The position numbers and the translations under genes were made by a program. Shown here in pieces: positions 5,803 through 22,933 of a stretch of 22,933 nucleotides of DNA (its first letter is position 1; each line of letters opens with the position of its first letter). The stretch comes from PVC group bacterium. Its GTDB lineage: Bacteria > GCA-001730085 > JADFSZ01. The notes under the pieces were generated by a model. That model was not told the origin of the DNA, did no database searches, and saw nothing but the letters and a program-made list of their open reading frames with translations. Location: the NCBI GenBank assembly GCA_022560555.1, contig JADFSZ010000004.1, positions 1-22,933 on the forward strand. Direction: 5' to 3'.

Positions 5803-6831
5803 TTACTCCTGAATACTACTGTCTTCGTTATACTCTAATCCTAATGACAAAATTTTACTCACCAGATCATCAAAATTCAAACCATGTTTTCTTGCCGATA
5901 ACGCAAAATCATCATCCTTCGTAATACCCGGATTTGGATTAGCTTCAATGACAAAAACCTCTTTGTCGGACGTCAGCCGAATATCAATTCGCGCGTAACC
6001 CCGAATCCGCAAAATCTTATACACACGTTTTGAGGTTTCAATGATTTTCTTTTCCAAAACAGGATCTTTTAAGTAGGCAAAACCATATCTCACTTTCCAT
6101 TTTTTTCGATATTCCGGGTCCCACTTTACCTTATATGTGGCAATTTGCGGGCCTTCGTTTTCTATCGGCAATTTTAATTCCCGAATGGGGAAGGTCGTAA
6201 TAATCCGATTTCCCAGCATGCTGACATATAATTCTCTACCCTCAATATACTCTTCCGCGATAACATCCTGAGCTAAATTGTCATGAATAAAGTTTGCGCG
6301 CTCCTTTAAGTCAGTGTCGTTGGATATCACAGAAGCATTTGAGATTCCGTAAGACGACTCATCACGCAGGGGTTTGATAATCACGGGATATTTCAGCCAT
6401 TTGGGATGATAAACCCGACAGCCGCGATAAAATATCTTGAACTTTGACACATGGATATGGTGATGACTTAAGATTTCCTTCGTTATCCCCTTGTTTTTAC
6501 AAAGGACCATCGCCGCCGGATTGGAACCCGTGTAGGGTATTTGCAAAAGCTCGAACAGTCCCACAATGTTGCGTTCGTAAAATGATTGTCCGTGAAAATG
6601 CTCGACTAAATTAAAAAAAATATCCGGTTTTTTCTCCGCAACAGCATCCAAAAGGGGTCGAATATCATCATAAATCCCTACCACCCGGATATCATGTCCC
6701 AAATTTTTCAATGATTCGTAACATTGCCGCTCTGTTTTATATTCTTTCTTTTTAAATAACTCTAGATAATTTCTGTTCTGGGGAGTTTCGCCCATCGTAT
6801 CGCAAATAAGAATGACATCCAGCTTTTTCAT
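5803..6831 (-). CDS. ATP-grasp ligase, D-alanine--D-alanine ligase-like family
   Basis: 342 aa. Has the Ddl-type N-domain (LNLVEHFHG-like, LLQIPYTGS), the ATP-binding strand PVIIKPLRDESSYGIS, the hinge AEEYIEGRELYV and the Mg-binding YARIDIRL...VFVIEANPNPG. The start ATG overlaps the stop of the upstream peptidase gene (6828..6831). Confidence 0.85.
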   Translation of the reverse strand: MKKLDVILICDTMGETPQNRNYLELFKKKEYKTERQCYESLKNLGHDIRVVGIYDDIRPLLDAVAEKKPDIFFNLVEHFHGQSFYERNIVGLFELLQIPYTGSNPAAMVLCKNKGITKEILSHHHIHVSKFKIFYRGCRVYHPKWLKYPVIIKPLRDESSYGISNASVISNDTDLKERANFIHDNLAQDVIAEEYIEGRELYVSMLGNRIITTFPIRELKLPIENEGPQIATYKVKWDPEYRKKWKVRYGFAYLKDPVLEKKIIETSKRVYKILRIRGYARIDIRLTSDKEVFVIEANPNPGITKDDDFALSARKHGLNFDDLVSKILSLGLEYNEDSSIQE

Positions 6832-7841
6832 AAATCCCTCTTAAAAAGCCCCGTGTAAAAATGGTTTTTAACAAGCGCCGTCAGGCAGCCTATGCACATT
6901 AATTTTGTCTCAGTTTCTTCAGACCGGCAATAAAGACCCATCTCTTTCGAGCGGCGTGTCAAGCGTCGAACAAGGTGATCGATAACATATTTGTGTTGCC
7001 CAGTCCATTTTTGCACTATACTTATTAATTCTTTTCGATTTTTTTGTAGATACCGATAGGCTTTATTTGGGGGGGGGCTCACGTCACGGCTGAAGAGCAC
7101 AAGAAGTTCTTTATCAAAAAACTCCGGTGACTCCTGCGCGTACATTTTTTTTCGTTTCTTGTAATGTGTAATTAATTTTGACTTCAAGCGCTTCACGTTA
7201 AAATACCGTGTCTGCGATTCCACCAGCGGCTCCCGATCTTTCACCTTCCGCATCAGAGTGTCTACATATTCAAGTTTGTTGATCACGCGCCAATTTTTAT
7301 ACCTTACACGCCAGTTAATTTTCGGATTCATCCATACGGCAAACGATTCCGCGAAATCCTCATCCGGATGACTCTGGGCATATCCTTCTTCGATATTGCT
7401 GACATAATTTCGGCTATATTTCTTAAATTTATAGTAGTCCGAAAACTCTTTGGAAGGCTGTCCGAAGAGTTTTCTCCATTTTGGCTTATTTTGAAATTTA
7501 TAAGCGTATGATATCGCGTGTCCCATCTCATGGCGCATTAATTTCAAGAATTCTTCTTGGGATTCTCCTTCGACTTCAAGCATCATCTGTCTTTCTAAAG
7601 CCCTCAGGCGCGAATGGCAGAGATAAAAAGGAATTCCGATCGCTGGCACACCCTCAGGACAAAGCCACTCGTCCGCCAAATAAACCGCGGGACGAAACCG
7701 GATACCCTTTAGTTCGAGCTCCATGGTAAACACTTCCACATACGGAACGACCATCGAGTGCTCCAAGCTTATCGGCAAATCGCAAAACCGCATCTCCAAC
7801 AACGCTTCATCCGTCAGTTTGTCTAAATCATTTATCTTCAC
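6828..7841 (-). CDS. Putative zinc-binding metallopeptidase (HExxH)
   Basis: 337 aa. Has an HExxH motif in LMRHEMGHAISYAY and a downstream acidic SHPDEDFAESFAVW segment that could supply the third ligand. The N-terminal GIPFYLCHSRL...EVEGES block resembles the uncharacterised 'putative zinc-binding metallopeptidase' family, recalled from memory and not verified. The C-terminal third is basic and helical. Confidence 0.75.
   Translation of the reverse strand: MKINDLDKLTDEALLEMRFCDLPISLEHSMVVPYVEVFTMELELKGIRFRPAVYLADEWLCPEGVPAIGIPFYLCHSRLRALERQMMLEVEGESQEEFLKLMRHEMGHAISYAYKFQNKPKWRKLFGQPSKEFSDYYKFKKYSRNYVSNIEEGYAQSHPDEDFAESFAVWMNPKINWRVRYKNWRVINKLEYVDTLMRKVKDREPLVESQTRYFNVKRLKSKLITHYKKRKKMYAQESPEFFDKELLVLFSRDVSPPPNKAYRYLQKNRKELISIVQKWTGQHKYVIDHLVRRLTRRSKEMGLYCRSEETETKLMCIGCLTALVKNHFYTGLFKRDL
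7069..7077. repeat. G9/C9 homopolymer tract inside the metallopeptidase CDS
   Basis: Nine consecutive G on the plus strand (C9 on the coding strand) encode Pro-Pro-Pro in ...RDVSPPPNKAY.... It is the longest G/C run I saw in the window. Confidence 0.95.
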
Positions 7842-7856
7842 CTCATTTTCCTCTCA

Positions 7857-8858
7857 TTACGGAACGGTTCTAAACCGTGTGGCTCTTAAAATATTCTCAA
7901 GAAGCATCAACACCAGGGCCGCGCTGATGGGGAGTACATACAATTCCCGATAGTTATAAAAAGCGTTTTGTTCCACTTTGCTTTTTTCCATCTTATCGAT
8001 TTCATCGTATATATTCCGCAATTCTTTCGTATTTGTCGCTCGAAAATATTGTCCCCCGGTGATAGCCGCGATTTCCGTTAAGGATTCTTCGTTAAGCTCA
8101 AAAATCACATTTTGATATCTCGTCCGTCCCCAAGGATCCCTCGTCGGATACGGAACAGGCCCCATCGATCCCGTTCCAATCGTATACACTTTGATACCCA
8201 GTGATTTCGCGATTTTCGCCGCCTTACGGGGCTCAACCTCACCGGCATTGTTGATGCCATCCGTCAAAAGAACAATAATCTGACTTTCACCTTTTTTATC
8301 TTTCAGACGTTTAATGGATGAGATCAGACCCGAGCCTATGGCTGTTCCGTCTTCGATTAAACCGACTTCGGCCCGATCAAGAAAGGTGTTCGTCACATCA
8401 TGATCCAGCGTTAAAGGGCACAAAGTATAAGCCCTTCCGGCAAAAACAACAATCCCAATCCGGTCATCTGCGCGTTCACGAATAAAATCCTTAATGACAG
8501 ACTTTGCTATTTCAAGCCGATTAACACGTTTTTTGTTTTTTTGAAAATCTTCCGCGAGCATACTTGTTGAGACATCCACTGCCAAAATAATATCAATCCC
8601 CTCTTTATGAATCTTGGTTTCCTCTAGGCCCCAACGCATGCCGACAAGACCAAGAACCATTAACATCACAACAGAGGTTTTCAAGAGAAACATGCCTTTC
8701 TTAAATATTTCAAATGCGGGAGAATAAATATTTTTAAAAGCTCTCGTATTTGAGAATTTCACTTCGGCGTATTGAGAACCTTCCCGGTACCAAATCCAGA
8801 CGAGCGCCAAAAGAATCGGGGCCAAAACAAAAAACCAAGGATGCGTGATTTCAAACAT
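7857..8858 (-). CDS. VWA domain-containing membrane protein, BatA-like
   Basis: The start is placed at the ATG at 8858 (MFEITHPWFFVLAPILLALVWIWY, a typical BatA N-terminal TM). The ORF extends to 8972 but would then overlap the upstream gene by 122 nt. With the 8858 start the overlap is 8 nt. It has the MIDAS motif DVSTSM, a VWA core (IIVLLTDGINNAG) and a C-terminal TM helix. Confidence 0.85.
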   Translation of the reverse strand: MFEITHPWFFVLAPILLALVWIWYREGSQYAEVKFSNTRAFKNIYSPAFEIFKKGMFLLKTSVVMLMVLGLVGMRWGLEETKIHKEGIDIILAVDVSTSMLAEDFQKNKKRVNRLEIAKSVIKDFIRERADDRIGIVVFAGRAYTLCPLTLDHDVTNTFLDRAEVGLIEDGTAIGSGLISSIKRLKDKKGESQIIVLLTDGINNAGEVEPRKAAKIAKSLGIKVYTIGTGSMGPVPYPTRDPWGRTRYQNVIFELNEESLTEIAAITGGQYFRATNTKELRNIYDEIDKMEKSKVEQNAFYNYRELYVLPISAALVLMLLENILRATRFRTVP

Positions 8859-9843
8859 AATTCGCCCTCTGACTGTTACGAAGGTCCTCTTTTTCATTCT
8901 CCTCGGGCGGCCCAGGAATCGTGCTTCGAATAAATTCCCGCGCCTGAACAAGAAGGTGATTCGCTTCGTCAAGACGGGGCCTAAATCGCGCGAATTTCAC
9001 TAAATCACATTCGGACATAAATTCCTGCAAAAGTTTTCGATGCTCATATGTTATCACATGTGTTCTGCTTGTTGCCTCCAAAAACTCTTGCGTTGTCTGT
9101 TCCGGGGCGTTTAGAGAAAATCGTCCTTCGATATAGTGACGCACAATATCAGAAACCCCCGAATAGAATTCTTTATACAAGTCCTCTTCCAGCAAACCTG
9201 AATCTTCAAGCCTTTTCAATTCTTCTAAAGCACGTTCATGAATCGGACGCGGATCAAGATCAACGCCCTTCATCTCCTCTTTGGATTTTTTGGAGCGTAG
9301 CCACCACCAAACACCGAACACCAAAAGAGCTAAAACGATCCCCCCTAACACAATCAACGTTATCATGGACGGCTCCACAGGACCCTTGATATCACGAATG
9401 TCCGTATCATCAACACCTATAAGACTTACAACATCAATAAAAAGCTCCGGTGTTTTATATTCAGAAAATTCGCCCTCAGGATCAACAGCAACGAAGATTT
9501 TCGGTCGTATCACATACGGCCCCGGAACAAAAGTATTCAGACTATATTTTTTTTTGACAAATACCATATCCGGGTCAACTTTTAGCGGTTCACTTTTTTC
9601 AACGCTTTCAATAAAGAGACCATCGATATCAACGGACAGAAGGGGGAATCGAACTTGATAATTACGTGGATATTGAGCCGATATTGTTAGTGTTACGTTC
9701 TTTGCGACTTGAACTTTCGTTTTATCTATTGACGCCCAGACTTTCACACGATCATTATCAAACGATAAACCGTATGGTGCGCATAAAACCATGAAAACGA
9801 TCATCCCTGATAAAGTGCGCGTTAAGAACTGAGTCGTTATCAT
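8851..9843 (-). CDS. Membrane protein combining a BatD-like N-terminal extracytoplasmic domain with a DUF4381-like C-terminal domain
   Basis: 330 aa. In order: a signal-like N-terminus, a beta-rich region (WASIDKTKVQVAKNVTLTISAQ) reminiscent of BatD, a TM helix (ITLIVLGGIVLALLVFGVWWW), then a helical domain ending in ...ECDLVKFARFRP, typical of the small DUF4381 proteins found between DUF58 and BatA. Domain names are from memory. Confidence 0.65.
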   Translation of the reverse strand: MITTQFLTRTLSGMIVFMVLCAPYGLSFDNDRVKVWASIDKTKVQVAKNVTLTISAQYPRNYQVRFPLLSVDIDGLFIESVEKSEPLKVDPDMVFVKKKYSLNTFVPGPYVIRPKIFVAVDPEGEFSEYKTPELFIDVVSLIGVDDTDIRDIKGPVEPSMITLIVLGGIVLALLVFGVWWWLRSKKSKEEMKGVDLDPRPIHERALEELKRLEDSGLLEEDLYKEFYSGVSDIVRHYIEGRFSLNAPEQTTQEFLEATSRTHVITYEHRKLLQEFMSECDLVKFARFRPRLDEANHLLVQAREFIRSTIPGPPEENEKEDLRNSQRANYV

Positions 9844-10719
9844 CTACTTTCGCCTCTCCCTCATCGCAAAAAATTTCTTCAACGGACGAATATATCCATG
9901 ATCTGTTCGAATCTCAATATGATCGATTTTGTGCATTTTAAATAACGCATTCCTCTTTTCTGTTTGAGACAGGCTATTTTCTCTGTAGTGGCGGAGCACC
10001 TCAGGATCATACGTGTCCACAAATACAATATTTTCAGACTCAATATCCCTAAGTTTTATTATGCCTACAGGGTGAATCTCACACTCTCTTGGATCCGTAA
10101 CAGATACAGCGATCATATCATGACGTCGGCGCGCTATTTTAAGATCTTTTTCATACCCGGACGCAAAGAAATCTGAAATCAGAAAACATACCGCGTGACG
10201 TTTAATGATAGACATCAAAAATCTCAAAGCCGCTTGTATATTCGTTCCCTTTTGACAGGGCTGAAAATACAGTATTTCACGAATAACTCTTAAGACATGT
10301 TTTTTGCCCTTTTTGGGCGGAATATAACGTTCGACTTGATCTGTAAAAATAATGAGCCCGACTTTATCCTGATTTTTGATAGCGGAAAAAGCTAAAACGG
10401 CTCCGAGCTCAGCCACGTATTCACGTTTATTTCTTTGGATCGAACCAAACTCTCCTGAACCGGAAGCGTCCAGGATGAGCATCAATGTTTGCTCTCTCTC
10501 CTCAACAAATTTTTTAATATGCGGAAATCCCGTGCGAGCCGTCACATTCCAGTCAATCAAACGCACATCATCCCCGGGTTGATAGGCACGAACTTCATCA
10601 AATTCAATCCCGCACCCCTTAAAGACACTATGATATTGCCCTGAAAAGATTTCGCTTACCACACGCCGCGTACGAATATGAATATTCTTAACATTTTTTA
10701 ATATTTCGGAAGGGATCAT
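9844..10719 (-). CDS. DUF58 domain-containing protein (MoxR-associated, VWA-like)
   Basis: 291 aa. Has the characteristic VRAYQPGDDVRLIDWNVTARTGFPHIKKFVEERE block followed by a degenerate VWA fold (LMLILDASGS). Its stop is directly adjacent to the next gene start (9844/9843). Confidence 0.85.
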   Translation of the reverse strand: MIPSEILKNVKNIHIRTRRVVSEIFSGQYHSVFKGCGIEFDEVRAYQPGDDVRLIDWNVTARTGFPHIKKFVEEREQTLMLILDASGSGEFGSIQRNKREYVAELGAVLAFSAIKNQDKVGLIIFTDQVERYIPPKKGKKHVLRVIREILYFQPCQKGTNIQAALRFLMSIIKRHAVCFLISDFFASGYEKDLKIARRRHDMIAVSVTDPRECEIHPVGIIKLRDIESENIVFVDTYDPEVLRHYRENSLSQTEKRNALFKMHKIDHIEIRTDHGYIRPLKKFFAMRERRK

Positions 10720-16102: not shown

Positions 16103-17629
16103 ATGTTTCTGACAAAGCATATACTCCAAAATTCCACTTTTAGACAGTTTCTCCTGAAAAATGCTCCGTATCGCTATTTGGAGAATATTACGCGAACGCG
16201 TATCATCAAGAAGGTTAGATCTGTCATTCCCACGATTCCGGCTTATTGCGAATACCTTCATAAGCACAAAATCTCAACTGATCCCGTTAATCTGAAAAAT
16301 TTAGCCATAGAAGATTTACCTCTGACAAACAAATCCGAATACATCCAAAAATATCCCCTTAAGGACATCTGCGCCAACGGCACGATTGAAGATAAATACT
16401 GTCTCGAATCCAGCTCCGGATACTCGGGAGAAGAACAGTATTGGGCCCGAAACACGTATGAGGATGAGAGTTTTACCCGCTACCTGGAAGTGTCCTCCAA
16501 ACAATATCTTCAGATCGATAAAAAATCGACACTTTTGATCGTCTGCTGGGCACTCGGAACGTGGGTCACGGGAGAAAAATTCGCACACGCGGCGCGGGTG
16601 GTCGCATGCAACAGCAACTACAAGCTGACCGTAATCACGCCGGGCAACAACTTTCCCACAGTCATAAACATTTTAAATAAATTCCAAGGCATGTTTGATC
16701 AAATCGTGATTGCTGGATATCCCTTTTTCATAAAAAGCCTTCTTTTGAAAGGGCCCGAAATCGGGATCGATTGGAGCCAAGCGCGCTATCATATTATCAT
16801 CGGCGGGGAGGGATTTCCGGAAGACTTGCGGGATTTTTTTGCAAAACAACTTCATAGTCCCGTTAATACCTTTGGCCAAAGCATGATCGCATCTGCCTAT
16901 GGCTCTGCGGACACCGGAATCGGGGTAGGACATGAGACTCCGTTCTCAATCCTTATCCGACGTTTGGCAAAAAAAGATGCTCGTCTTTCTGAATCCCTAT
17001 TCGGAACATCTGTTCATAATCTTCCGGTTGTATTTCAATTCAATCCCTTGAATTATCTCATCGAAAATGTCGATGGGGAAATTATTATCACGGCCCCTTT
17101 TAACGGTGTCCCTCTTATTCGATACAATCTTCATGATAGCGGAGGAGTTATCCCGTATGATCAAATAAACACTATACTTGAGGAGCATGGCTACAATCCG
17201 AAAAAGGAATTAGCCGAGCTCGGTCATTCCCCTCAAGATCTCTGGAAGCTTCCCATTCTCTATGTATTCGGACGCTCGGACGGAACCATCATTTATAACG
17301 GGGCCAATATTTTTCTGGAAAACATCAAAGAAGCTCTTGCTTTGCCGGAAATTGTCCATTCCAATACCGGCCGGTTCACCCTCTCGCGTATCCTGCTGGA
17401 AAATTTTGAACCAAAAATCAAAATTGTCATTGAATTATCCCAAGGGGTAGAAGTCACAGAGCAGCTAAAAACGATGTATGAAGTGGCAGTGATTTCAACT
17501 CTCGCCAGAGTCAACAAAGAATATCGCGATCAACTTGAAAAGCTTCATGACAAAGCAACTCCTCTCATCGAATTTATCCATCCCTCCATACACCCGGAAC
17601 AGGACACGATTAAACACAAGTATATTTAA
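16103..17629 (+). CDS. Adenylate-forming enzyme, phenylacetate-CoA ligase (PaaK) / coenzyme F390 synthetase-like
   Basis: 508 aa. Has LPLTNKSEYIQKYP (PaaK-like entry motif), the P-loop-position motif ESSSGYSGEEQYW (canonical SSGTTGKP is degenerate here), YGSADTG (A5-like) and VFGRSDGTIIYNGANIF (the GRxDD-hinge/A8-like motif). No obvious SD sequence. The gene is framed by its own promoter and terminator. Confidence 0.6.
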   Translation: MFLTKHILQNSTFRQFLLKNAPYRYLENITRTRIIKKVRSVIPTIPAYCEYLHKHKISTDPVNLKNLAIEDLPLTNKSEYIQKYPLKDICANGTIEDKYCLESSSGYSGEEQYWARNTYEDESFTRYLEVSSKQYLQIDKKSTLLIVCWALGTWVTGEKFAHAARVVACNSNYKLTVITPGNNFPTVINILNKFQGMFDQIVIAGYPFFIKSLLLKGPEIGIDWSQARYHIIIGGEGFPEDLRDFFAKQLHSPVNTFGQSMIASAYGSADTGIGVGHETPFSILIRRLAKKDARLSESLFGTSVHNLPVVFQFNPLNYLIENVDGEIIITAPFNGVPLIRYNLHDSGGVIPYDQINTILEEHGYNPKKELAELGHSPQDLWKLPILYVFGRSDGTIIYNGANIFLENIKEALALPEIVHSNTGRFTLSRILLENFEPKIKIVIELSQGVEVTEQLKTMYEVAVISTLARVNKEYRDQLEKLHDKATPLIEFIHPSIHPEQDTIKHKYI

Positions 17630-17632
17630 ACG

Positions 17633-17661
17633 AAAAAAGGCGGCTGAAATAGCCGCCTTTT
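17633..17661. terminator. Bidirectional rho-independent terminator between convergent genes
   Basis: AAAAAA-GGCGGCT-GAAAT-AGCCGCC-TTTT. The 7-bp GC-rich stem (17639..17645 / 17651..17657) has an A-tract on one side and a T-tract on the other. It can therefore serve both the plus-strand gene ending at 17629 and the minus-strand mlaD ending at 17685. Confidence 0.8.
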
Positions 17662-17684: not shown

Positions 17685-18548
17685 TTATTTTTTCTTGCGG
17701 TCAGCTTTTAATTCCTCGGGTGATTTTTTCAAAAGCATCCAAGGATGAGCTTCAATTTTCATGGCAAACTTCGCGAAATCCGCGCTCGCTGCCCTGAAAT
17801 TCGTAACGATCCGGCGAATATCTTCGCGGTTTTCTACAACGAGGCCATCCGTGTTTGTCAAGAGACTATCCAGTTTGCCAAGCGCGTTGTCGAGCTTTCC
17901 TTTAAGACCGTCAGTCGCTAATGCCAAATTTTTTATCATTGATCTGATATCTCCGCGATTGTCCGCGATCATGCCCCGGGCATCAACGGCAAGACCTTCG
18001 AAATTTGAAACCGTGTTTTTCAGTGAAGCAATCATTTCTTTATCTCCGAGAAAGTCTGCCAAATTGTCAATCATGGCTTCGACTTTTTCCACAATCTTCT
18101 TGCCACTCACCAGCAATTGCTCAAGATCAAACGGAGCCTCCCCAACCAAGCGCTGCCCTTCAGGCAGTGCCGGGGCGCTAGGCGTTCCCGGTGAAATCTC
18201 AATATACTTGTCTCCCATGAGGCCCATTGTCTTAATAGAAGCTACCGAATCCGTTTTAATCACAGCGGATTTATCAATCGAAATCGAAAACACAACACGC
18301 GGATCATCCGGGGCTTTCACCTCCGCGTCCGTTAGGATGACAATGCGATCTATTTTTCCCACAGGAACACCGGCATACATTACGGAACTGTCCTCTGCAA
18401 GACCGTTCGCGGCGGGAAACACAATTTCTGCTTCGTACGTACTCTTAAATATTTTAATGTCGCCGATATTAAAAATAAACAATCCCATAATGGCAAGACA
18501 GCTAACAATCACAACGCCTGCTTTAAGTTCATCTTTTTGAAAATCCAT
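17685..18548 (-). CDS. mlaD: MCE/MlaD-family substrate-binding protein with a long C-terminal helical extension
   Basis: 287 aa. Has an N-terminal TM (AGVVIVSCLAIMGLFIF), an MCE beta-barrel domain (MYAGVPVGKIDRI...IKTMGLMGDKYIEISPG), then about 140 aa of heptad-like helical sequence. Confidence 0.85.
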   Translation of the reverse strand: MDFQKDELKAGVVIVSCLAIMGLFIFNIGDIKIFKSTYEAEIVFPAANGLAEDSSVMYAGVPVGKIDRIVILTDAEVKAPDDPRVVFSISIDKSAVIKTDSVASIKTMGLMGDKYIEISPGTPSAPALPEGQRLVGEAPFDLEQLLVSGKKIVEKVEAMIDNLADFLGDKEMIASLKNTVSNFEGLAVDARGMIADNRGDIRSMIKNLALATDGLKGKLDNALGKLDSLLTNTDGLVVENREDIRRIVTNFRAASADFAKFAMKIEAHPWMLLKKSPEELKADRKKK

Positions 18549-18566
18549 ATCGTCTACTTCCTTCCC

Positions 18567-19367
18567 TTAGGATTCCTCGGTTAATTCCTTAAAATAGTCT
18601 TCTCCCGATCGGCGAAGCGCAATCGGACCTTCGGCACTGCCGGTTATAAACTGCTGAACAACAGGATTTTTTGAATTCTTGATTTCATCCACGGTACCCT
18701 GCTCCAGAATCTTCCCTTCGTACAGCATAATAATTTTGTCCGCGATACGAAAAGCACTTTCCATCTCATGAGTCACAACGATAGAGGTCATGCCAAGTTT
18801 TTTTGATAAATCGAATATCAGCTTGTCAATCACAGCCATAACGACAGGATCGAGCCCCGCTCCCGGCTCGTCATAAAACACAAGTTCGGGATCCATCGCG
18901 ATGGCCCTGGCAAGCCCCACACGCTTTTTCATCCCTCCGCTGATTTCAGCCGGCTTCAAATGTTCAAATCCGGATAGCCCCACCATCTCAAGCTTAATTT
19001 TAACCATAATCCGGATAATCTCTTCATCCAAATCCGTATGTTCCCGTAAGGCCAGTGCCACATTATCCCCCACCGTCATAGAATTAAAAAGGGCGGATCC
19101 TTGAAAAAGCATGCCAAATTTCTTTCGAAGTTCAATTAATTGATCTTCATCCGCTTTTACAATGTCAATATTATTAATGAGCACGGAACCCGCATCCGGA
19201 CGAAGCATTCCGATTAAAATACGCAGGAATGTCGTTTTACCGCATCCGCTTCCGCCCATAATGACGATGGTTTTCCCCCGCTCGAAATCAACATTGATAC
19301 CGTTTAAAATCTTTCTATCTCCAAAACTCTTATCGAGATTACGAACTTCTATGATATGGTCAACCAT
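18567..19367 (-). CDS. mlaF: ABC transporter ATP-binding protein, MlaF-like
   Basis: 266 aa. Has Walker A GGSGCGKTT, Q-loop MLFQGSALF, signature ISGGMKKRVGLARA, Walker B LVFYDEPGAGLD, H-loop VTHE and a short C-terminal extension. Confidence 0.9.
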   Translation of the reverse strand: MVDHIIEVRNLDKSFGDRKILNGINVDFERGKTIVIMGGSGCGKTTFLRILIGMLRPDAGSVLINNIDIVKADEDQLIELRKKFGMLFQGSALFNSMTVGDNVALALREHTDLDEEIIRIMVKIKLEMVGLSGFEHLKPAEISGGMKKRVGLARAIAMDPELVFYDEPGAGLDPVVMAVIDKLIFDLSKKLGMTSIVVTHEMESAFRIADKIIMLYEGKILEQGTVDEIKNSKNPVVQQFITGSAEGPIALRRSGEDYFKELTEES

Positions 19368-19383
19368 AAATTTTTCTCATTGA

Positions 19384-20196
19384 TTATACAAAAACAAAAT
19401 AAAAAAGACTTGTCAATACACAGTCAGCAAAAATAATCAGGGTAATCGAAGCCACTACAGATATTGTCGTTGCTTTTCCGACCCCTTCAGCGCCCCCTTT
19501 GACAATCAATCCTTCATAACATCCGATAAACCCGATGATAAGAGCAAACACAAAACTTTTGAGCAAGCCAGTCCAGATATCTTTTAGCACAAGCGCATCA
19601 ATTGTTTTTTGGATATATAATCCGGTCGGAATATTGATACTATAGTGTCCGATGAGATAACCGCCGTAGATACCGACAAGGTCAGCAAACATGGTTAAAC
19701 AAGGCAGCATAATCACCAAAGCTAATATTCTCGGTACAACTAAATACCGAACCGGGTTAATTCCCATCACTTCCAATGCATCGATTTCTTCGGCCACTTT
19801 CATGGTTCCTAATTCCGCCGTAATAGCCGCGCCGGCACGGCCGGCAATGACAATCGCCGTTAAAAGAGGACCAAGTTCCCGGCACATCGACACAGCCACC
19901 AAACTTCCCACATACATCACAACCCCGAATTTTTTCAGGAGATACGCTGTCTGCATGGCCATAATCATTCCCATAAAAAGTGACACCAAAAACACAATTG
20001 ATATCGACTTATTGCCCATGAAGACGCACTGATAGGACACATGCTCCCGACTCAGCCCCTTTTGCCCTTTTTTGAAAGGCGCAATGAAAGTCCAATAAAA
20101 ATTCGAAACCATGAGGGAGTAAAGACTGGAGAGATGGCTTAAAAACACACGCGCGTTTTTTCCGATATGTTCTAATGCTCTGATCGCAAATTCCAT
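19384..20196 (-). CDS. mlaE: ABC transporter permease, MlaE-like
   Basis: 270-aa polytopic membrane ORF with the MlaE/YrbE pattern (...RELGPLLTAIVIAGRAGAAITAELGTMKVAEEIDALEVMGINPVRYLVVPR...). Confidence 0.9.
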   Translation of the reverse strand: MEFAIRALEHIGKNARVFLSHLSSLYSLMVSNFYWTFIAPFKKGQKGLSREHVSYQCVFMGNKSISIVFLVSLFMGMIMAMQTAYLLKKFGVVMYVGSLVAVSMCRELGPLLTAIVIAGRAGAAITAELGTMKVAEEIDALEVMGINPVRYLVVPRILALVIMLPCLTMFADLVGIYGGYLIGHYSINIPTGLYIQKTIDALVLKDIWTGLLKSFVFALIIGFIGCYEGLIVKGGAEGVGKATTISVVASITLIIFADCVLTSLFYFVFV

Positions 20197-20228
20197 AGTG
20201 TATTGTCTGAGCTGGTTTGGGGGTAAAA

Positions 20229-20570
20229 TCAGGTTTTTTGGATTTCGTCTAAAGCGGCCGATTCAGTCTCCACTATGCGAAAAATCCCGTCGAGTTTTGC
20301 TAATTCAAAGACAGATCGGACTGTATCATTAATATTGTACAAGCAAAGCCGCCCATTCAATTTCTTCAGCTTCTGAAGCAGCTCAATGAGAGTCGCAAGC
20401 CCTGAAGAATCAATATATTCCACCTGAGAAAAATCAACCGCGATCTTCGGTGCACCTGAATCAGAGTGCTTGGAAAACTCATTTCTAATTTGCGGGGATG
20501 AATACAAATCCAAATCCCCTTTGAGGTGAAAAAGAGTAATACCGTCTTTCGTGTCAACTTGTATGTCCAT
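20229..20570 (-). CDS. STAS-domain protein (anti-sigma-factor antagonist / SpoIIAA-RsbV-like; possible MlaB equivalent)
   Basis: 113 aa. Has the ...VEYIDSSGLATLIELL... motif, with Ser55 aligning to the phosphorylated Ser58 of B. subtilis SpoIIAA (FMDSSGLGV). GGAG lies about 8 nt upstream of the ATG. It sits 32 nt upstream of mlaE. Confidence 0.9.
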   Translation of the reverse strand: MDIQVDTKDGITLFHLKGDLDLYSSPQIRNEFSKHSDSGAPKIAVDFSQVEYIDSSGLATLIELLQKLKKLNGRLCLYNINDTVRSVFELAKLDGIFRIVETESAALDEIQKT

Positions 20571-20587
20571 AGGGCAACTCCGTGGGT

Positions 20588-20616
20588 ATGATATTATAAG
20601 TTATACCAAGTTTCAA
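20588..20616 (-). promoter_or_regulatory. Candidate internal sigma70-like promoter upstream of the STAS-mlaEFD genes
   Basis: On the minus strand, in the 56-nt kinase-STAS gap: TTGAAA (20616..20611), a 17-nt spacer, then TATCAT (20593..20588). The predicted start would leave a very short leader around the GGAG, so this is tentative. Confidence 0.3.
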
Positions 20617-20626
20617 CAGGAACCTT

Positions 20627-21031
20627 TTACTTCTTCTTCACCATTGTCAGGAGGGTTCCGGTGCTGTTTGACGTGTCATAATCTATTTCATCCATAATCT
20701 TTTGCATCAAAAACACGCCCAATCCTCCGGGGCGAACATTGTCCAACTTCCTCGATTTAAAATCTTTGGGGTCACTTTTTTTACCGTAGTCTCTTAGTCG
20801 GAAATATAATTTCCCTTCAGATTCACTCATTTCGAAATTGATAATACCATCCGTCCGTTCATTATATCCGTGGCGAATAATGTTGCAAATGGCCTCATCC
20901 ACGGCTAGAACAATCATCATGGCATCTTTTCCCTTATACCCTGAAATTTCTAAAAATGATTTTACCGAGGCTCGAATAATTCTCAAATATTTTGCATCAC
21001 TTTTAAATGACAGCTGAAGCATGGCCAACAA
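20627..21031 (-). CDS. Anti-sigma regulatory factor-type serine kinase (RsbW/SpoIIAB-like, HATPase_c)
   Basis: 134 aa. Has N-box EAICNIIRHGY, G1-like RDYGKK and G2 PGGLGVFLMQKIMDE. Size and motif order are typical of partner-switching kinases. Confidence 0.9.
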   Translation of the reverse strand: MLAMLQLSFKSDAKYLRIIRASVKSFLEISGYKGKDAMMIVLAVDEAICNIIRHGYNERTDGIINFEMSESEGKLYFRLRDYGKKSDPKDFKSRKLDNVRPGGLGVFLMQKIMDEIDYDTSNSTGTLLTMVKKK

Positions 21032-21043
21032 CCTCCTGGATCA

Positions 21044-22306
21044 TCATGAACACACAATAGAGACGAGCGTCATATCATCATGCTGGGGTGCGTCTCCGAC
21101 AAATTGATGAACACTGTCTAAAATTTGTTTAGAAAGACCGGGGTGCCCGTAATTTTTTTTAATAACATTCTCGAGCCGAGGGAACCCATACTCCTCTTTT
21201 TTGTTATTCCGCGCTTCAATAATTCCGTCCGTAAATAAAAGAATCTCTTTAGAGTCCGTCCAAGGGATAGTGTGAGACGTGTACGTCACCTCGGAAAATA
21301 TTCCCAGGGGGCTACTCTGAGCTTCTTTGATCTCTTCCAAGGTCTTCTTCTTATGATCCACAAGCAACGGAGGGATATGGCCGGCATTAGAAAAAGTGAC
21401 GGTTTGAACTTGCAGGTTAAAAATCATGTAAAACATTGTTGAAAACATTCCAAACTGTGGTTTGAGAGACAAGGATTTATTGACGGAATCCAGGACAACA
21501 TGAGGAAGGGTATCTTTGTTGGCCTCAAAACGCATCGCGCTGATGGTTTTCACCATATAAAGCCCTGATGGAACCCCTTTACCGGAAACGTCCCCAAAAA
21601 CCACACCATACTCTTTTGGAGAAAACTCTAAAACGTCATAAAAATCTCCGCTGACTTCCCTCGCTGGCGTGTTATGAGCGAATACAGATAAACCTTTCAG
21701 ATGCGGCAATACATCGGGCATAAAGGTTTCCTGAATCTGTCGGGCAAAATCCAACTCCTGCTCGATTCTTTGCTTATCCATCATTTCTTTGTGCATGCGC
21801 GCGTTTTCGATTGCGATGGCGCTCTGGTTAGCAAATGCCATAAATATTTCAATATCCTCTTCACAAAAGGCTTCCTGATGAACAGGATTGATGGCTTGAA
21901 GAATACCGATAATTTTTTCCTTAACACGCATTGGTACACATAGGATGGATCTTGTGATAAAACCGGTTGACTCATCGGGCTTGCTATAAAAGCGCGGGTC
22001 TTTTTGGACATCTTTGACCAACAGCGGTTCATTATGTTCGGCCACCCAACCGGCGATTCCTTGGCCGATTTTTAGACGAAATTTCTCTTTAAGAGTGCCC
22101 CCTGTTTCTCCGGTCGCGACTTGAAAAACAAGCTCATTTGCAGCCTCATCTATCAGCATAAGGCTACTGACGTTACACTCCATCACTTTTTCGACAATTT
22201 TCATAATGAGCCCCAAGAGCTCACTCAAATCAAGGGTAGAATTAATGAGCGTTCCCACCTCAATGAGACTTGATAGCTTTTCAATTTTATGACTAGTAGC
22301 ATTCAT
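21044..22306 (-). CDS. GAF domain-containing PP2C-type (SpoIIE/RsbU family) serine phosphatase
   Basis: 420 aa. The N-terminal GAF domain runs from about residue 15 to 170 (VSSLMLIDEAANELVF...GIAGWVAEHNEPLLV...SILCVPM). The C-terminal PPM/SpoIIE domain has the metal-binding motifs SGDFYD, GDVSGKG, FTDGIIEA and HDDMTLV. Confidence 0.92.
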   Translation of the reverse strand: MNATSHKIEKLSSLIEVGTLINSTLDLSELLGLIMKIVEKVMECNVSSLMLIDEAANELVFQVATGETGGTLKEKFRLKIGQGIAGWVAEHNEPLLVKDVQKDPRFYSKPDESTGFITRSILCVPMRVKEKIIGILQAINPVHQEAFCEEDIEIFMAFANQSAIAIENARMHKEMMDKQRIEQELDFARQIQETFMPDVLPHLKGLSVFAHNTPAREVSGDFYDVLEFSPKEYGVVFGDVSGKGVPSGLYMVKTISAMRFEANKDTLPHVVLDSVNKSLSLKPQFGMFSTMFYMIFNLQVQTVTFSNAGHIPPLLVDHKKKTLEEIKEAQSSPLGIFSEVTYTSHTIPWTDSKEILLFTDGIIEARNNKKEEYGFPRLENVIKKNYGHPGLSKQILDSVHQFVGDAPQHDDMTLVSIVCS

Positions 22307-22424: not shown

Positions 22425-22453
22425 ATCATATCACAAGCTTGGTACTCTGACAA
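22425..22453 (-). promoter_or_regulatory. Candidate sigma70-like promoter for the phosphatase-kinase-STAS-mla cluster
   Basis: On the minus strand: TTGTCA (22453..22448), a 17-nt spacer, then TATGAT (22430..22425), about 115 nt upstream of the phosphatase ATG. It is back-to-back with the tRNA promoter, with 15 bp between the two -35 boxes. Confidence 0.4.
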
Positions 22454-22497: not shown

Positions 22498-22510
22498 ACA
22501 TCGAATCAAT

Positions 22511-22585
22511 GGCCCCATCGTCTAGCCTGGTCTAGGACGCTAGATTCTCATTCTAGAAACACGGGTTCGAATCCCGTTGGGGCTA
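22511..22585 (+). tRNA. tRNA-Glu (anticodon CUC)
   Basis: A 75-nt cloverleaf folded by hand. Acceptor GGCCCCA/TGGGGCT (G1:U72 wobble), D-arm GTCT...GGAC as in E. coli tRNA-Glu, anticodon stem CTAGA/TCTAG with loop TTCTCAT (anticodon CTC), 4-nt variable loop, T-arm ACGGG-TTCGAAT-CCCGT, discriminator A. CCA is not encoded. Confidence 0.93.
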
Positions 22586-22615
22586 TTTTTAGTTGGGAAA
22601 GGTATGCGTAAAGGA

Positions 22616-22698
22616 GCCGAAGTGGCGGAATGGCAGACGCGCTAGGTTCAGAACCTAGTGGTGGCAACATCGTGGGGGTTCGACTCCCCCCTTCGGCA
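22616..22698 (+). tRNA. tRNA-Leu (anticodon CAG), class II with long variable arm
   Basis: 83 nt. Acceptor GCCGAAG/CTTCGGC, D-arm GCGGAATGGCAGACGC nearly identical to E. coli tRNA-Leu(CAG), anticodon stem CTAGG/CCTAG with loop TTCAGAA (anticodon CAG), long variable arm, T-arm GGGGG-TTCGACT-CCCCC, discriminator A. CCA is not encoded. Confidence 0.93.
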
Positions 22699-22933
22699 TG
22701 ACTTCCTGTATCTTGTGCATGGTTTTCGAGGACCGAAGGGTTCATCCCGAATCGGCTCCCCAAGCAGGCCTAGATACCAGAAGAGCAAGCTCTTCTGAAT
22801 CTATGCACAAGCTTTTTGGGCCACAAATTTGGGATGAACTCGTGTCAGGTTTTCGTAGATCGAAGAGCTACGGAAACCTGGCGATCGGAAAGACAGGCGT
22901 CAAGTCCAGCAGGGCCCACTGAAGAGCAAAAAG
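22699..22933 (+). ncRNA. Unassigned, highly structured non-coding region (possible small RNA and/or cis-regulatory leader, truncated by the window end)
   Basis: Several long helices were found by hand. H1 is 22712..22722 with 22801..22811, followed by T5 at 22813..22817. H2 is the hairpin 22778..22797. H3 is 22738..22752 with 22827..22841 (15 bp, 2 G:U). H4 is the hairpin 22846..22858 / 22868..22880 (13 bp). No credible CDS. No RNA family could be assigned. Strand is assumed from the co-orientation with the tRNAs and the T-tract. Confidence 0.35.

Follow-up and report, generated by a model that had tools for sequence, protein, structure and literature searches.

What is most likely new here is a partner-switching module that probably has an MCE lipid ATP-binding cassette (ABC) transporter as its output, both kinds of module being known already. 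The genes in question lie on contig JADFSZ010000004.1 (assembly GCA_022560555.1) of a PVC group bacterium, of which positions 1 to 22,933 were analyzed and are hereafter called the window. A minus-strand cluster of six genes, examined within this window of ~23 kb only, encodes a GAF-PP2C phosphatase, an RsbW/SpoIIAB-like serine kinase, a SpoIIAA-type STAS protein, and the transporter components MlaE, MlaF, and MlaD (Table 1). Observed directly were the set of genes, the intact catalytic motifs and phosphosite, the conserved linkage of the two modules, and the fusion of STAS to MlaE in relatives. Some protein-level coupling between the switch module and the transporter is very likely. With modest confidence, we lean toward a specific form of it, in which a phosphorylation-gated, MlaB-like STAS subunit would control the transporter.

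In the mechanism that we favor, the unphosphorylated STAS protein would dock on the helical subdomain of MlaF by its helical face, comprising helix alpha2 from Ser55 onward, as MlaB does in Escherichia coli, and docking would stabilize or activate the MlaF ATPase. The RsbW-like kinase would compete for the same STAS face and phosphorylate Ser55, and phospho-STAS would be ejected from MlaF, leaving the transporter shut down or destabilized. Once a cytoplasmic ligand is sensed by its GAF domain, the GAF-PP2C phosphatase would dephosphorylate STAS; in other lineages, CHASE2, PAS, or FHA-GAF domains would do the sensing. The output of partner switching would then be envelope lipid trafficking and not a sigma factor. 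We infer that STAS binds MlaF, in which direction the transporter is regulated, what phosphorylation does, and what kind of ligand is sensed.

The first-pass annotation of the window had proposed a gene-neighborhood survey as a check of the linkage. We surveyed the linkage from three independent seeds, STAS, kinase, and MlaE, and the outcome was strongly positive. For the STAS seed, an alignment of the protein with its database relatives was scanned against one genome per species. The exact window STAS sequence had no match in the assembly index. The scan yielded at least 580 relatives, of which the 80 most similar (36-51% identity) were taken with their flanks; the survey thus samples the subfamily set by the query patterns and not all STAS proteins. 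The open reading frames (ORFs) of each locus were scored against the six window proteins and family hidden Markov models, with the longest ORF used and small negative gaps being approximate. MlaE lay directly 3' of STAS in 76 of the 76 loci with at least 500 nucleotides (nt) downstream, with MlaF and MlaD next, and because it does so in every assessable locus, the arrangement is far beyond chance. An RsbW-like kinase lay directly 5' of STAS in 72/80 loci. Among the 48 loci with complete flanks, 37 had a PP2C gene in the cluster, either 5' of the kinase as in the window (11 loci), 3' of MlaD (25 loci), or at both sites (1 locus). Seven more carried the kinase with no PP2C within reach, and the remaining four, all from Verrucomicrobiae, showed STAS-MlaE alone.

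The other two seeds led to the same gene group. All six kinase homologs on long contigs (36-44% identity) resided in the cassette, and the carriers include Desulfobacteraceae, Syntrophobacteraceae, Nitrospirota, and Verrucomicrobiae. Starting from the 80 metagenome loci nearest to the window MlaE, of which 67 had enough upstream sequence, we found STAS directly 5' of MlaE in 35 and the kinase as well in 28 of those 35. Three gene orders were seen: phosphatase-kinase-STAS-MlaEFD, present in the window and in a metagenome-assembled genome (MAG) of Calditrichia; kinase-STAS-MlaEFD-phosphatase; and, in a Verrucomicrobiae locus, STAS-MlaE-MlaF-MlaD-GAF_PP2C-kinase. Source labels of cassette loci comprise Omnitrophota, Planctomycetota, Verrucomicrobiota, Auribacterota, KSB1, Calditrichia, Nitrospirota, and two Desulfobacterota families. 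These labels are MAG record titles, some of them probably imprecise, such as "Cytophagia" or "Planctomycetia" on third-party assemblies.

Could the partner-switching module and the Mla operon simply be neighbors by shared regulation or inherited synteny, co-transcribed with no coupling at the protein level? Both halves are complete known modules, and a promoter-like match lies in the 56-nt spacer between the kinase and STAS genes of the window. We nevertheless hold this explanation to be very improbable. The linkage is kept over three gene orders, four types of sensor domain, unrelated flanks, and the labels of at least eight phyla or classes, and its persistence through rearrangement and sensor exchange argues for selection on the linkage itself and not for inherited synteny. 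Fusions of STAS to MlaE likewise speak against mere co-transcription, as do the 4-nt start-stop overlaps of STAS and MlaE in many survey loci, which suggest translational coupling of the two genes. Adjacency to MlaE is also specific to this STAS subfamily, since a control STAS protein of 44% identity (P0006) resides in an unrelated gene context and the second STAS genes that some loci contain do not adjoin MlaE. Such second STAS genes stand on the opposite strand near the cassette in L041:13533-14045 (-), L081:8071-8472 (-), and L055:6110-6442 (-), and are reminiscent of systems with two anti-sigma antagonists.

The flanks differ by lineage, with tRNA genes in the window, LysM-YkuD and AccA genes in many Omnitrophota- and Planctomycetia-labeled loci, and others elsewhere; only the cassette itself is conserved. 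In those Omnitrophota- and Planctomycetia-labeled loci, in which the phosphatase carries a CHASE2 sensor (type B), the commonest upstream neighbors among 135 flank ORFs were LysM-YkuD L,D-transpeptidase (22 ORFs) and the acetyl-CoA carboxylase AccA (19 ORFs). The presence of these envelope and fatty-acid genes near the cassette may reflect lineage synteny or a functional neighborhood.

Within the cassette, STAS and not the kinase is the component tied to the transporter, because it stays adjacent to MlaE where the kinase is missing and forms fusions with MlaE in some relatives. STAS adjoins MlaE in the absence of a kinase in 8/80 genome loci and 7/35 metagenome loci. Two fusions carry an N-terminal STAS domain: that at L148:3614-4747 reads DASG, with Ala at the phosphosite, consistent with constitutive attachment, and that at L157:659-1786 reads DSGG. 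Fusion permeases of this kind were noted previously (PMC5016091). A Chthoniobacterales locus (L071:2589-3449) has a PP2C_2-type phosphatase ~50 nt 5' of STAS-MlaE and no RsbW-like kinase in reach, and four other Verrucomicrobiae loci lacking kinase and phosphatase keep DSSG.

These observations bear on a second explanation, which assigns the role of output arm to the kinase. It would sequester MlaF/MlaE, as an "anti-MlaF", or else a sigma factor from another part of the genome, and STAS would titrate the kinase and never be a transporter subunit. The kinase and STAS are indeed RsbW/SpoIIAB- and RsbV/SpoIIAA-type by sequence and by fold, Arg20, at a residue number that we take to be functionally important in SpoIIAB, is invariant among kinase homologs, and STAS remains below the MlaB-family threshold. 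STAS-MlaE pairs without a kinase and STAS-MlaE fusions are difficult to reconcile with a role of STAS restricted to the kinase, and Ser55 maps to an MlaF-contact residue of MlaB. Moreover, sigma factor genes were absent from the window, from the annotation of seven cassette loci with precomputed Pfam calls, and from the 25 commonest Pfam families in a set of 135 upstream flank ORFs. On balance, we regard the kinase as output arm as rather unlikely, and retain the STAS protein as the putative switchable subunit.

The STAS protein carries the phosphorylatable DSSG motif (codons 20411..20400, with Ser55 at 20408..20406 on the minus strand). DSSG was present in 80/80 STAS relatives, and the helix that follows, GLATL[IV]E, is nearly invariant. 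The protein exceeded the cut-off of TIGR00377 "anti-sigma factor antagonist" (80.5 bits against 53). In its AlphaFold2 model (predicted local distance difference test [pLDDT] score of 90), the topology is b1b2a1b3a2b4a3b5a4 and helix alpha2 begins at Ser55. The best Foldseek matches of this model were RsbV and SpoIIAA, with TMq values of 0.82-0.90. The model has a fifth strand and a fourth helix, both absent from MlaB, which is a minimal STAS protein of four strands and three helices. Orthology of the STAS protein with MlaB was considered and rejected, given a score under the MlaB family threshold and the longer fold. Because of these two properties, the protein is MlaB-like by analogy at most and not by family membership. 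In BLASTP, hhalign, and phmmer, Ser55 was aligned with Thr52 of E. coli MlaB (segment IDSSGLATLIELL against VDTGGLALLLHLI). The first-pass suggestion that this STAS protein may be the MlaB equivalent finds support in the kinase-less STAS-MlaE pairs, the fusions, the Ser55-Thr52 correspondence, and the MlaF handshake described below, with the caveat that the protein does not belong to the MlaB family.

The correspondence with Thr52 is of particular relevance in view of what is known of E. coli MlaB. This protein binds the helical subdomain of MlaF via helices alpha1-alpha3, and Thr52 is located near the center of the interface (PMC7367683). The phosphomimetic exchange T52E weakens MlaF binding, and T52A abolishes ATPase activity (PMC7367683). 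MlaF needs MlaB to stay associated with the complex, and MlaB acts on both activity and stability of MlaF (PMC7367683, PMC5016091). Phosphoregulation of MlaB was raised earlier as a hypothesis for E. coli, when a kinase and a phosphatase were unknown (PMC5016091, PMC7367683).

On the ATPase side, the window MlaF aligns end to end with the MlaF structures of E. coli, Pseudomonas aeruginosa, and Acinetobacter baumannii. Its best family match, NF008809, covers positions 6-267 of 270 with 259 bits, which is below the equivalog cut-off of 441. The C-terminal extension (amino acids [aa] 247-266, nt 18570-18629) contains Tyr258 and Leu262, equivalent to the handshake residues Tyr261 and Leu265 of the E. 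coli protein, and the third position (L266) is Thr here. A handshake motif [DE]YL..L is present in most of 62 cassette MlaF proteins. The MlaD protein matched TIGR00996 and TIGR04430 under their cut-offs. In one kinase-STAS-linked locus, MlaE and MlaF are fused into a single protein of 534 aa (L040:6414-8018).

Several observations weigh against a phosphorylation-gated, MlaB-like subunit. The STAS protein scored 31 bits with the MlaB model NF033618, whose cut-off is 90, compared with 80 bits for TIGR00377, and MlaB ranked only about 35th among the Foldseek matches of the STAS model (TMq 0.56-0.64). The E. coli T52A variant is non-functional yet still binds MlaF (PMC7367683), so that the role of Thr52 is not simply that of a phospho-switch. 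Nearly half of the nearest MlaE relatives (32/67) were without any STAS upstream, and, according to a phylogenomic study of Mla systems, the MlaF of Veillonella keeps a short C-terminal extension without MlaB (PMC10665443). The transporter thus has no intrinsic need of a STAS subunit. With STAS upstream of MlaE in 35 of 67 loci and lacking in the rest, the switch module is an accessory on roughly half of this MlaE clade and not a universal component. Finally, the kinase could act on a further target from elsewhere in the genome.

The two enzymes of the switch are probably active, judging from conservation of the ATP-binding residues and Arg20 of the kinase, the PP2C motifs of the phosphatase, and DSSG in all 80 STAS relatives. 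The best NCBIfam matches of the kinase were RsbW (68.8 bits) and SpoIIAB (57.6 bits), both under the equivalog cut-offs. In the alignment of kinase homologs, R20, E46, N50 (N box), D81-x-G (G1), and the PGGLG box (G2) are invariant, and E46, N50, D81-x-G, and G-x-G are conserved to at least 90% among 73 survey kinases. By our own count of residues rather than by a tool alignment, Arg20 bears the same number as Arg20 of SpoIIAB, which we take to contact SpoIIAA. The AlphaFold2 model of the kinase (pLDDT of 86) matched SpoIIAB from SpoIIAA complexes in Foldseek with template modeling (TM) scores of 0.84-0.86, and P. aeruginosa SiaB was a weak structural match. The phosphatase comprises a GAF domain (aa 26-166, ~21809-22231) and a SpoIIE/PP2C domain (aa 230-417, ~21056-21619; 1e-42). 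The metal-binding motifs GDxYD, GDVSGKG, TDG, and DDxT of the latter are kept across 50 family members.

The sensor part of the phosphatase is swapped across the family, with GAF, CHASE2, PAS, and FHA-GAF domains found next to a conserved catalytic domain. Loci of the window type have a cytoplasmic GAF domain, Omnitrophota- and Planctomycetia-labeled (type-B) loci have a membrane CHASE2 sensor, and PAS and FHA-GAF were each found in single metagenome loci. The earlier proposal of GAF as the input of the switch would apply to the phosphatase of the window, and within the family GAF is one of several inputs. The best PDB sequence matches of the window GAF domain were the cyclic-nucleotide-binding GAF domains of PDE5 (3e-28), PDE2A, PDE10, and CyaB2, together with the GAF-HD-GYP protein 4mcw. 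What we take to be the NKFDE-type motif is partly kept (N..F...D), as read off the PDE5 alignment. This hints at a ligand resembling a cyclic nucleoside monophosphate (cNMP).

A CHASE2-PP2C gene follows MlaD in type-B loci such as L008, L041 (L041:11540-13474), L078, and L086. In L013 and L041, genes for a FecR-domain protein and a putative outer-membrane beta-barrel are inserted between MlaD and CHASE2-PP2C, and a gap of ~1.8 kb between MlaD and the phosphatase, like that of L013 and L041, recurs in L022, L023, L040, L055, and L056. Such an organization of the CHASE2-type loci would suit a sensing unit that spans the envelope. The gene 3' of MlaD in GAF-type loci often encodes an ABC_trans_aux lipoprotein.

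Genes related to second messengers recur around the cassettes. GAF-HD (HD_5, HD-GYP-like) or GGDEF-EAL genes lie directly 3' of CHASE2-PP2C in L061:6876-7979, L085:11643-12755, and L059:11920-13659, and a gene for a cNMP-binding protein is divergent from STAS in L005 and L006 (Verrucomicrobiota). A third explanation would reverse the direction of information flow: the transporter would act as sensor, its MlaFE occupancy or ATPase state being read via STAS and lipid status being relayed elsewhere, for instance to gene expression or second-messenger enzymes. The GAF-HD or GGDEF-EAL genes after CHASE2-PP2C in many type-B loci and the cNMP-binding protein in Verrucomicrobiota suggest such wider signaling. 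However, the phosphatases already receive input through their own sensor domains (GAF, CHASE2, PAS, FHA), no output gene is conserved beside the cassette across lineages, and E. coli MlaB acts on activity or stability of MlaF and does not report on it (PMC7367683, PMC5016091). We consider a transporter acting as sensor distinctly unlikely and prefer STAS acting on MlaF.

In the window itself, the six co-directional genes and the gaps between them of 12, 56, 32, 16, and 18 nt, as reported in the first-pass annotation, were all found on the minus strand, and domain matches bore out the assignment as GAF+PP2C phosphatase, HATPase_c kinase, STAS protein with DSSG, MlaE, MlaF, and MlaD. The bidirectional terminator was also recovered, as a strong, G+C-rich hairpin with an A-run on one flank and a T-run on the other; it is situated between mlaD and a convergent ORF (16103-17629). 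No Sigma70-family, MlaC, or MlaA domains were detected in window ORFs of at least 90 aa, in agreement with the earlier statement that a sigma factor and MlaC are lacking. The descriptions "sigma-less" and "no other MlaB" apply to the 23-kb window alone. Absence of MlaC and MlaA from the window fits the "core" systems consisting of MlaEFD only that the phylogenomic Mla study describes (PMC10665443).

Table 1. Genes of the cluster, with its terminator and promoter-like elements (window coordinates).
Feature	Position	Strand	Size and evidence
GAF-PP2C phosphatase (SpoIIE-type PPM)	22306..21044	-	420 aa; Pfam GAF 6e-19, SpoIIE 1e-42
RsbW/SpoIIAB-like GHKL serine kinase	21031..20627	-	134 aa; HATPase_c_2 94 bits
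SpoIIAA-type STAS protein	20570..20229	-	113 aa; PF01740 83 bits, TIGR00377 80.5 bits
MlaE permease	20196..19384	-	270 aa; PF02405 276 bits, TIGR00056 249 bits (above cut-off)
MlaF-type ABC ATPase	19367..18567	-	266 aa; NF008809 259 bits
MlaD/MCE-domain protein, long form	18548..17685	-	287 aa; PF02470 64 bits
Bidirectional intrinsic terminator AAAAGGCGGCTgaaatAGCCGCCTTTT	17635-17661	both	11-bp stem, 6 G-C pairs, 5-nt loop
Candidate sigma-70-type promoter	22425..22453	-	TTGTCA-17 nt-TATGAT with TG; consensus scan only
Promoter-like match in kinase-STAS spacer	20588..20616	-	TTGAAA-17 nt-TATCAT; consensus scan only

The candidate promoter of the cluster is located ~120 nt 5' of the start codon of the phosphatase gene and is a consensus match, which is not evidence of function. 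The second match is a possible internal promoter for STAS-mlaEFD within the 56-nt spacer. Kinase and STAS genes abut or overlap in most related loci, unlike in the window. Given this spacer with its promoter-like match, STAS-mlaEFD of the window may be expressed independently of the kinase and phosphatase genes. An Rfam scan of the window detected neither a riboswitch nor a leader 5' of the cluster and matched only two tRNAs, tRNA-Glu(CTC) at 22510-22586 and tRNA-Leu(CAG) at 22616-22698. Both are on the plus strand, divergent from the cassette, and just 5' of its promoter region; two listed ORFs that overlap them (22548-22763 and 22698-22922) are probably spurious.

The plus-strand ORF 16103-17629, which converges on mlaD and has the terminator in common with it, encodes 508 aa without a Pfam match. 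Its weak N-terminal likeness to PaaK-type phenylacetate-CoA ligases (E 2e-5) raises the possibility of a divergent adenylate-forming enzyme. The remainder of the window consists of ordinary chromosomal genes, including ruvABC, yebC, queA, a BatA/VWA/DUF58 cluster, and transporters. The window RuvB shares 98% identity with a protein labeled "PVC group bacterium" and ~60-63% with proteins of Omnitrophica and other uncultured lineages, and the source is therefore an uncultured member of the PVC group. The BatA/VWA/DUF58 cluster (7857-10719), which includes a 330-aa ORF without Pfam match (8851-9843), adjoins a minus-strand gene pair (5803-7841) for a D-Ala-D-Ala-ligase-like ATP-grasp protein and a Peptidase_Mx putative zinc metallopeptidase.

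The cassette bears on the regulation of Mla/MCE transporters and on the reason for which MlaB carries a conserved, functionally critical Thr where SpoIIAA has its phosphosite. On/off control of the transporter was hypothesized for E. coli MlaB and never found there. With STAS, kinase, and phosphatase encoded together with the transporter, the cassette makes the hypothesis of MlaB phosphorylation directly testable. The first-pass annotation was not aware of a characterized wiring of this kind, and, likewise, our full-text searches gave no paper that links RsbW or PP2C modules to Mla/MCE transporters, and a review of STAS-only proteins makes no mention of Mla. In the phylogenomic study of Mla systems, MlaB is assigned by synteny and sparsely distributed, and the passages searched do not mention kinases or phosphatases (PMC10665443).

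The cassette occurs widely among uncultured lineages and also in some cultivable ones. It points toward control of outer-membrane lipid homeostasis by signals in many poorly studied phyla, such as Omnitrophota, Planctomycetota, Verrucomicrobiota, Desulfobacterota, and Nitrospirota. It is tempting to speculate that these loci represent a widespread, undescribed class of systems, in which a kinase/phosphatase pair would switch STAS on and off MlaF, and cytoplasmic (GAF, PAS, FHA) or periplasmic (CHASE2) signals would control lipid trafficking. Proteobacterial MlaB, with an essential Thr52 that awaits explanation, would then be a reduced relative whose kinase has been lost. To us, the chances for and against this wider view appear evenly balanced.

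Among known systems, E. coli MlaFEDB (PDB 6XGY, 6XBD) resembles the cassette in having MlaE, an MlaF with the handshake residues, an MCE protein, and a small cytoplasmic STAS protein encoded in the operon, with a hydroxyl residue (Thr52 or Ser55) at the start of alpha2. The two systems differ in several respects. The STAS protein described here is a full-length, five-stranded SpoIIAA-type protein, whereas MlaB is minimal; its gene lies 5' of mlaE, whereas mlaB is at the operon end; and a kinase and a phosphatase are dedicated to it, of which E. coli has none. Furthermore, MlaD is of a long form here, and MlaC and MlaA are not in the window. In STAS-MlaE fusion permeases and SLC26/SulP transporters, STAS is attached to and regulates the transporter. 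Here, STAS is a separate polypeptide and thus able to switch partners.

The Bacillus modules SpoIIE-SpoIIAB-SpoIIAA and RsbU-RsbW-RsbV share with the cassette a PP2C phosphatase, a GHKL Ser kinase with N, G1, and G2 boxes and Arg20, and a STAS protein with DSSG, and the predicted folds match with TM scores of 0.8-0.9. However, the sigma gene that is usually in the operon in Bacillus is not linked here, and an ABC lipid transporter is invariably linked instead. The STAS proteins also differ in alpha2, which reads GLATL[IV]E here and which has a counterpart in SpoIIAA/RsbV that we take to be GLGV.

The closest functional analogs of the proposed switch are partner-switching systems with non-sigma outputs, and an ABC transporter would join this short list. 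SiaABCD of P. aeruginosa is one such system. As in SypE/SypA of Vibrio fischeri, BtrU/W/V of Bordetella, and HenR/All4160 of Anabaena, a phosphatase and a kinase set the phosphorylation state of a STAS or STAS-like protein, which, when unphosphorylated, targets an effector other than a sigma factor. For the Anabaena glycosyltransferase All4160, which functions in envelope biosynthesis, STAS phosphorylation is inhibitory and is opposed by the phosphatase HenR (PMC13555669). None of these systems is known to include a transporter, whereas the effector proposed for the cassette described here is the ATPase of a lipid ABC transporter.

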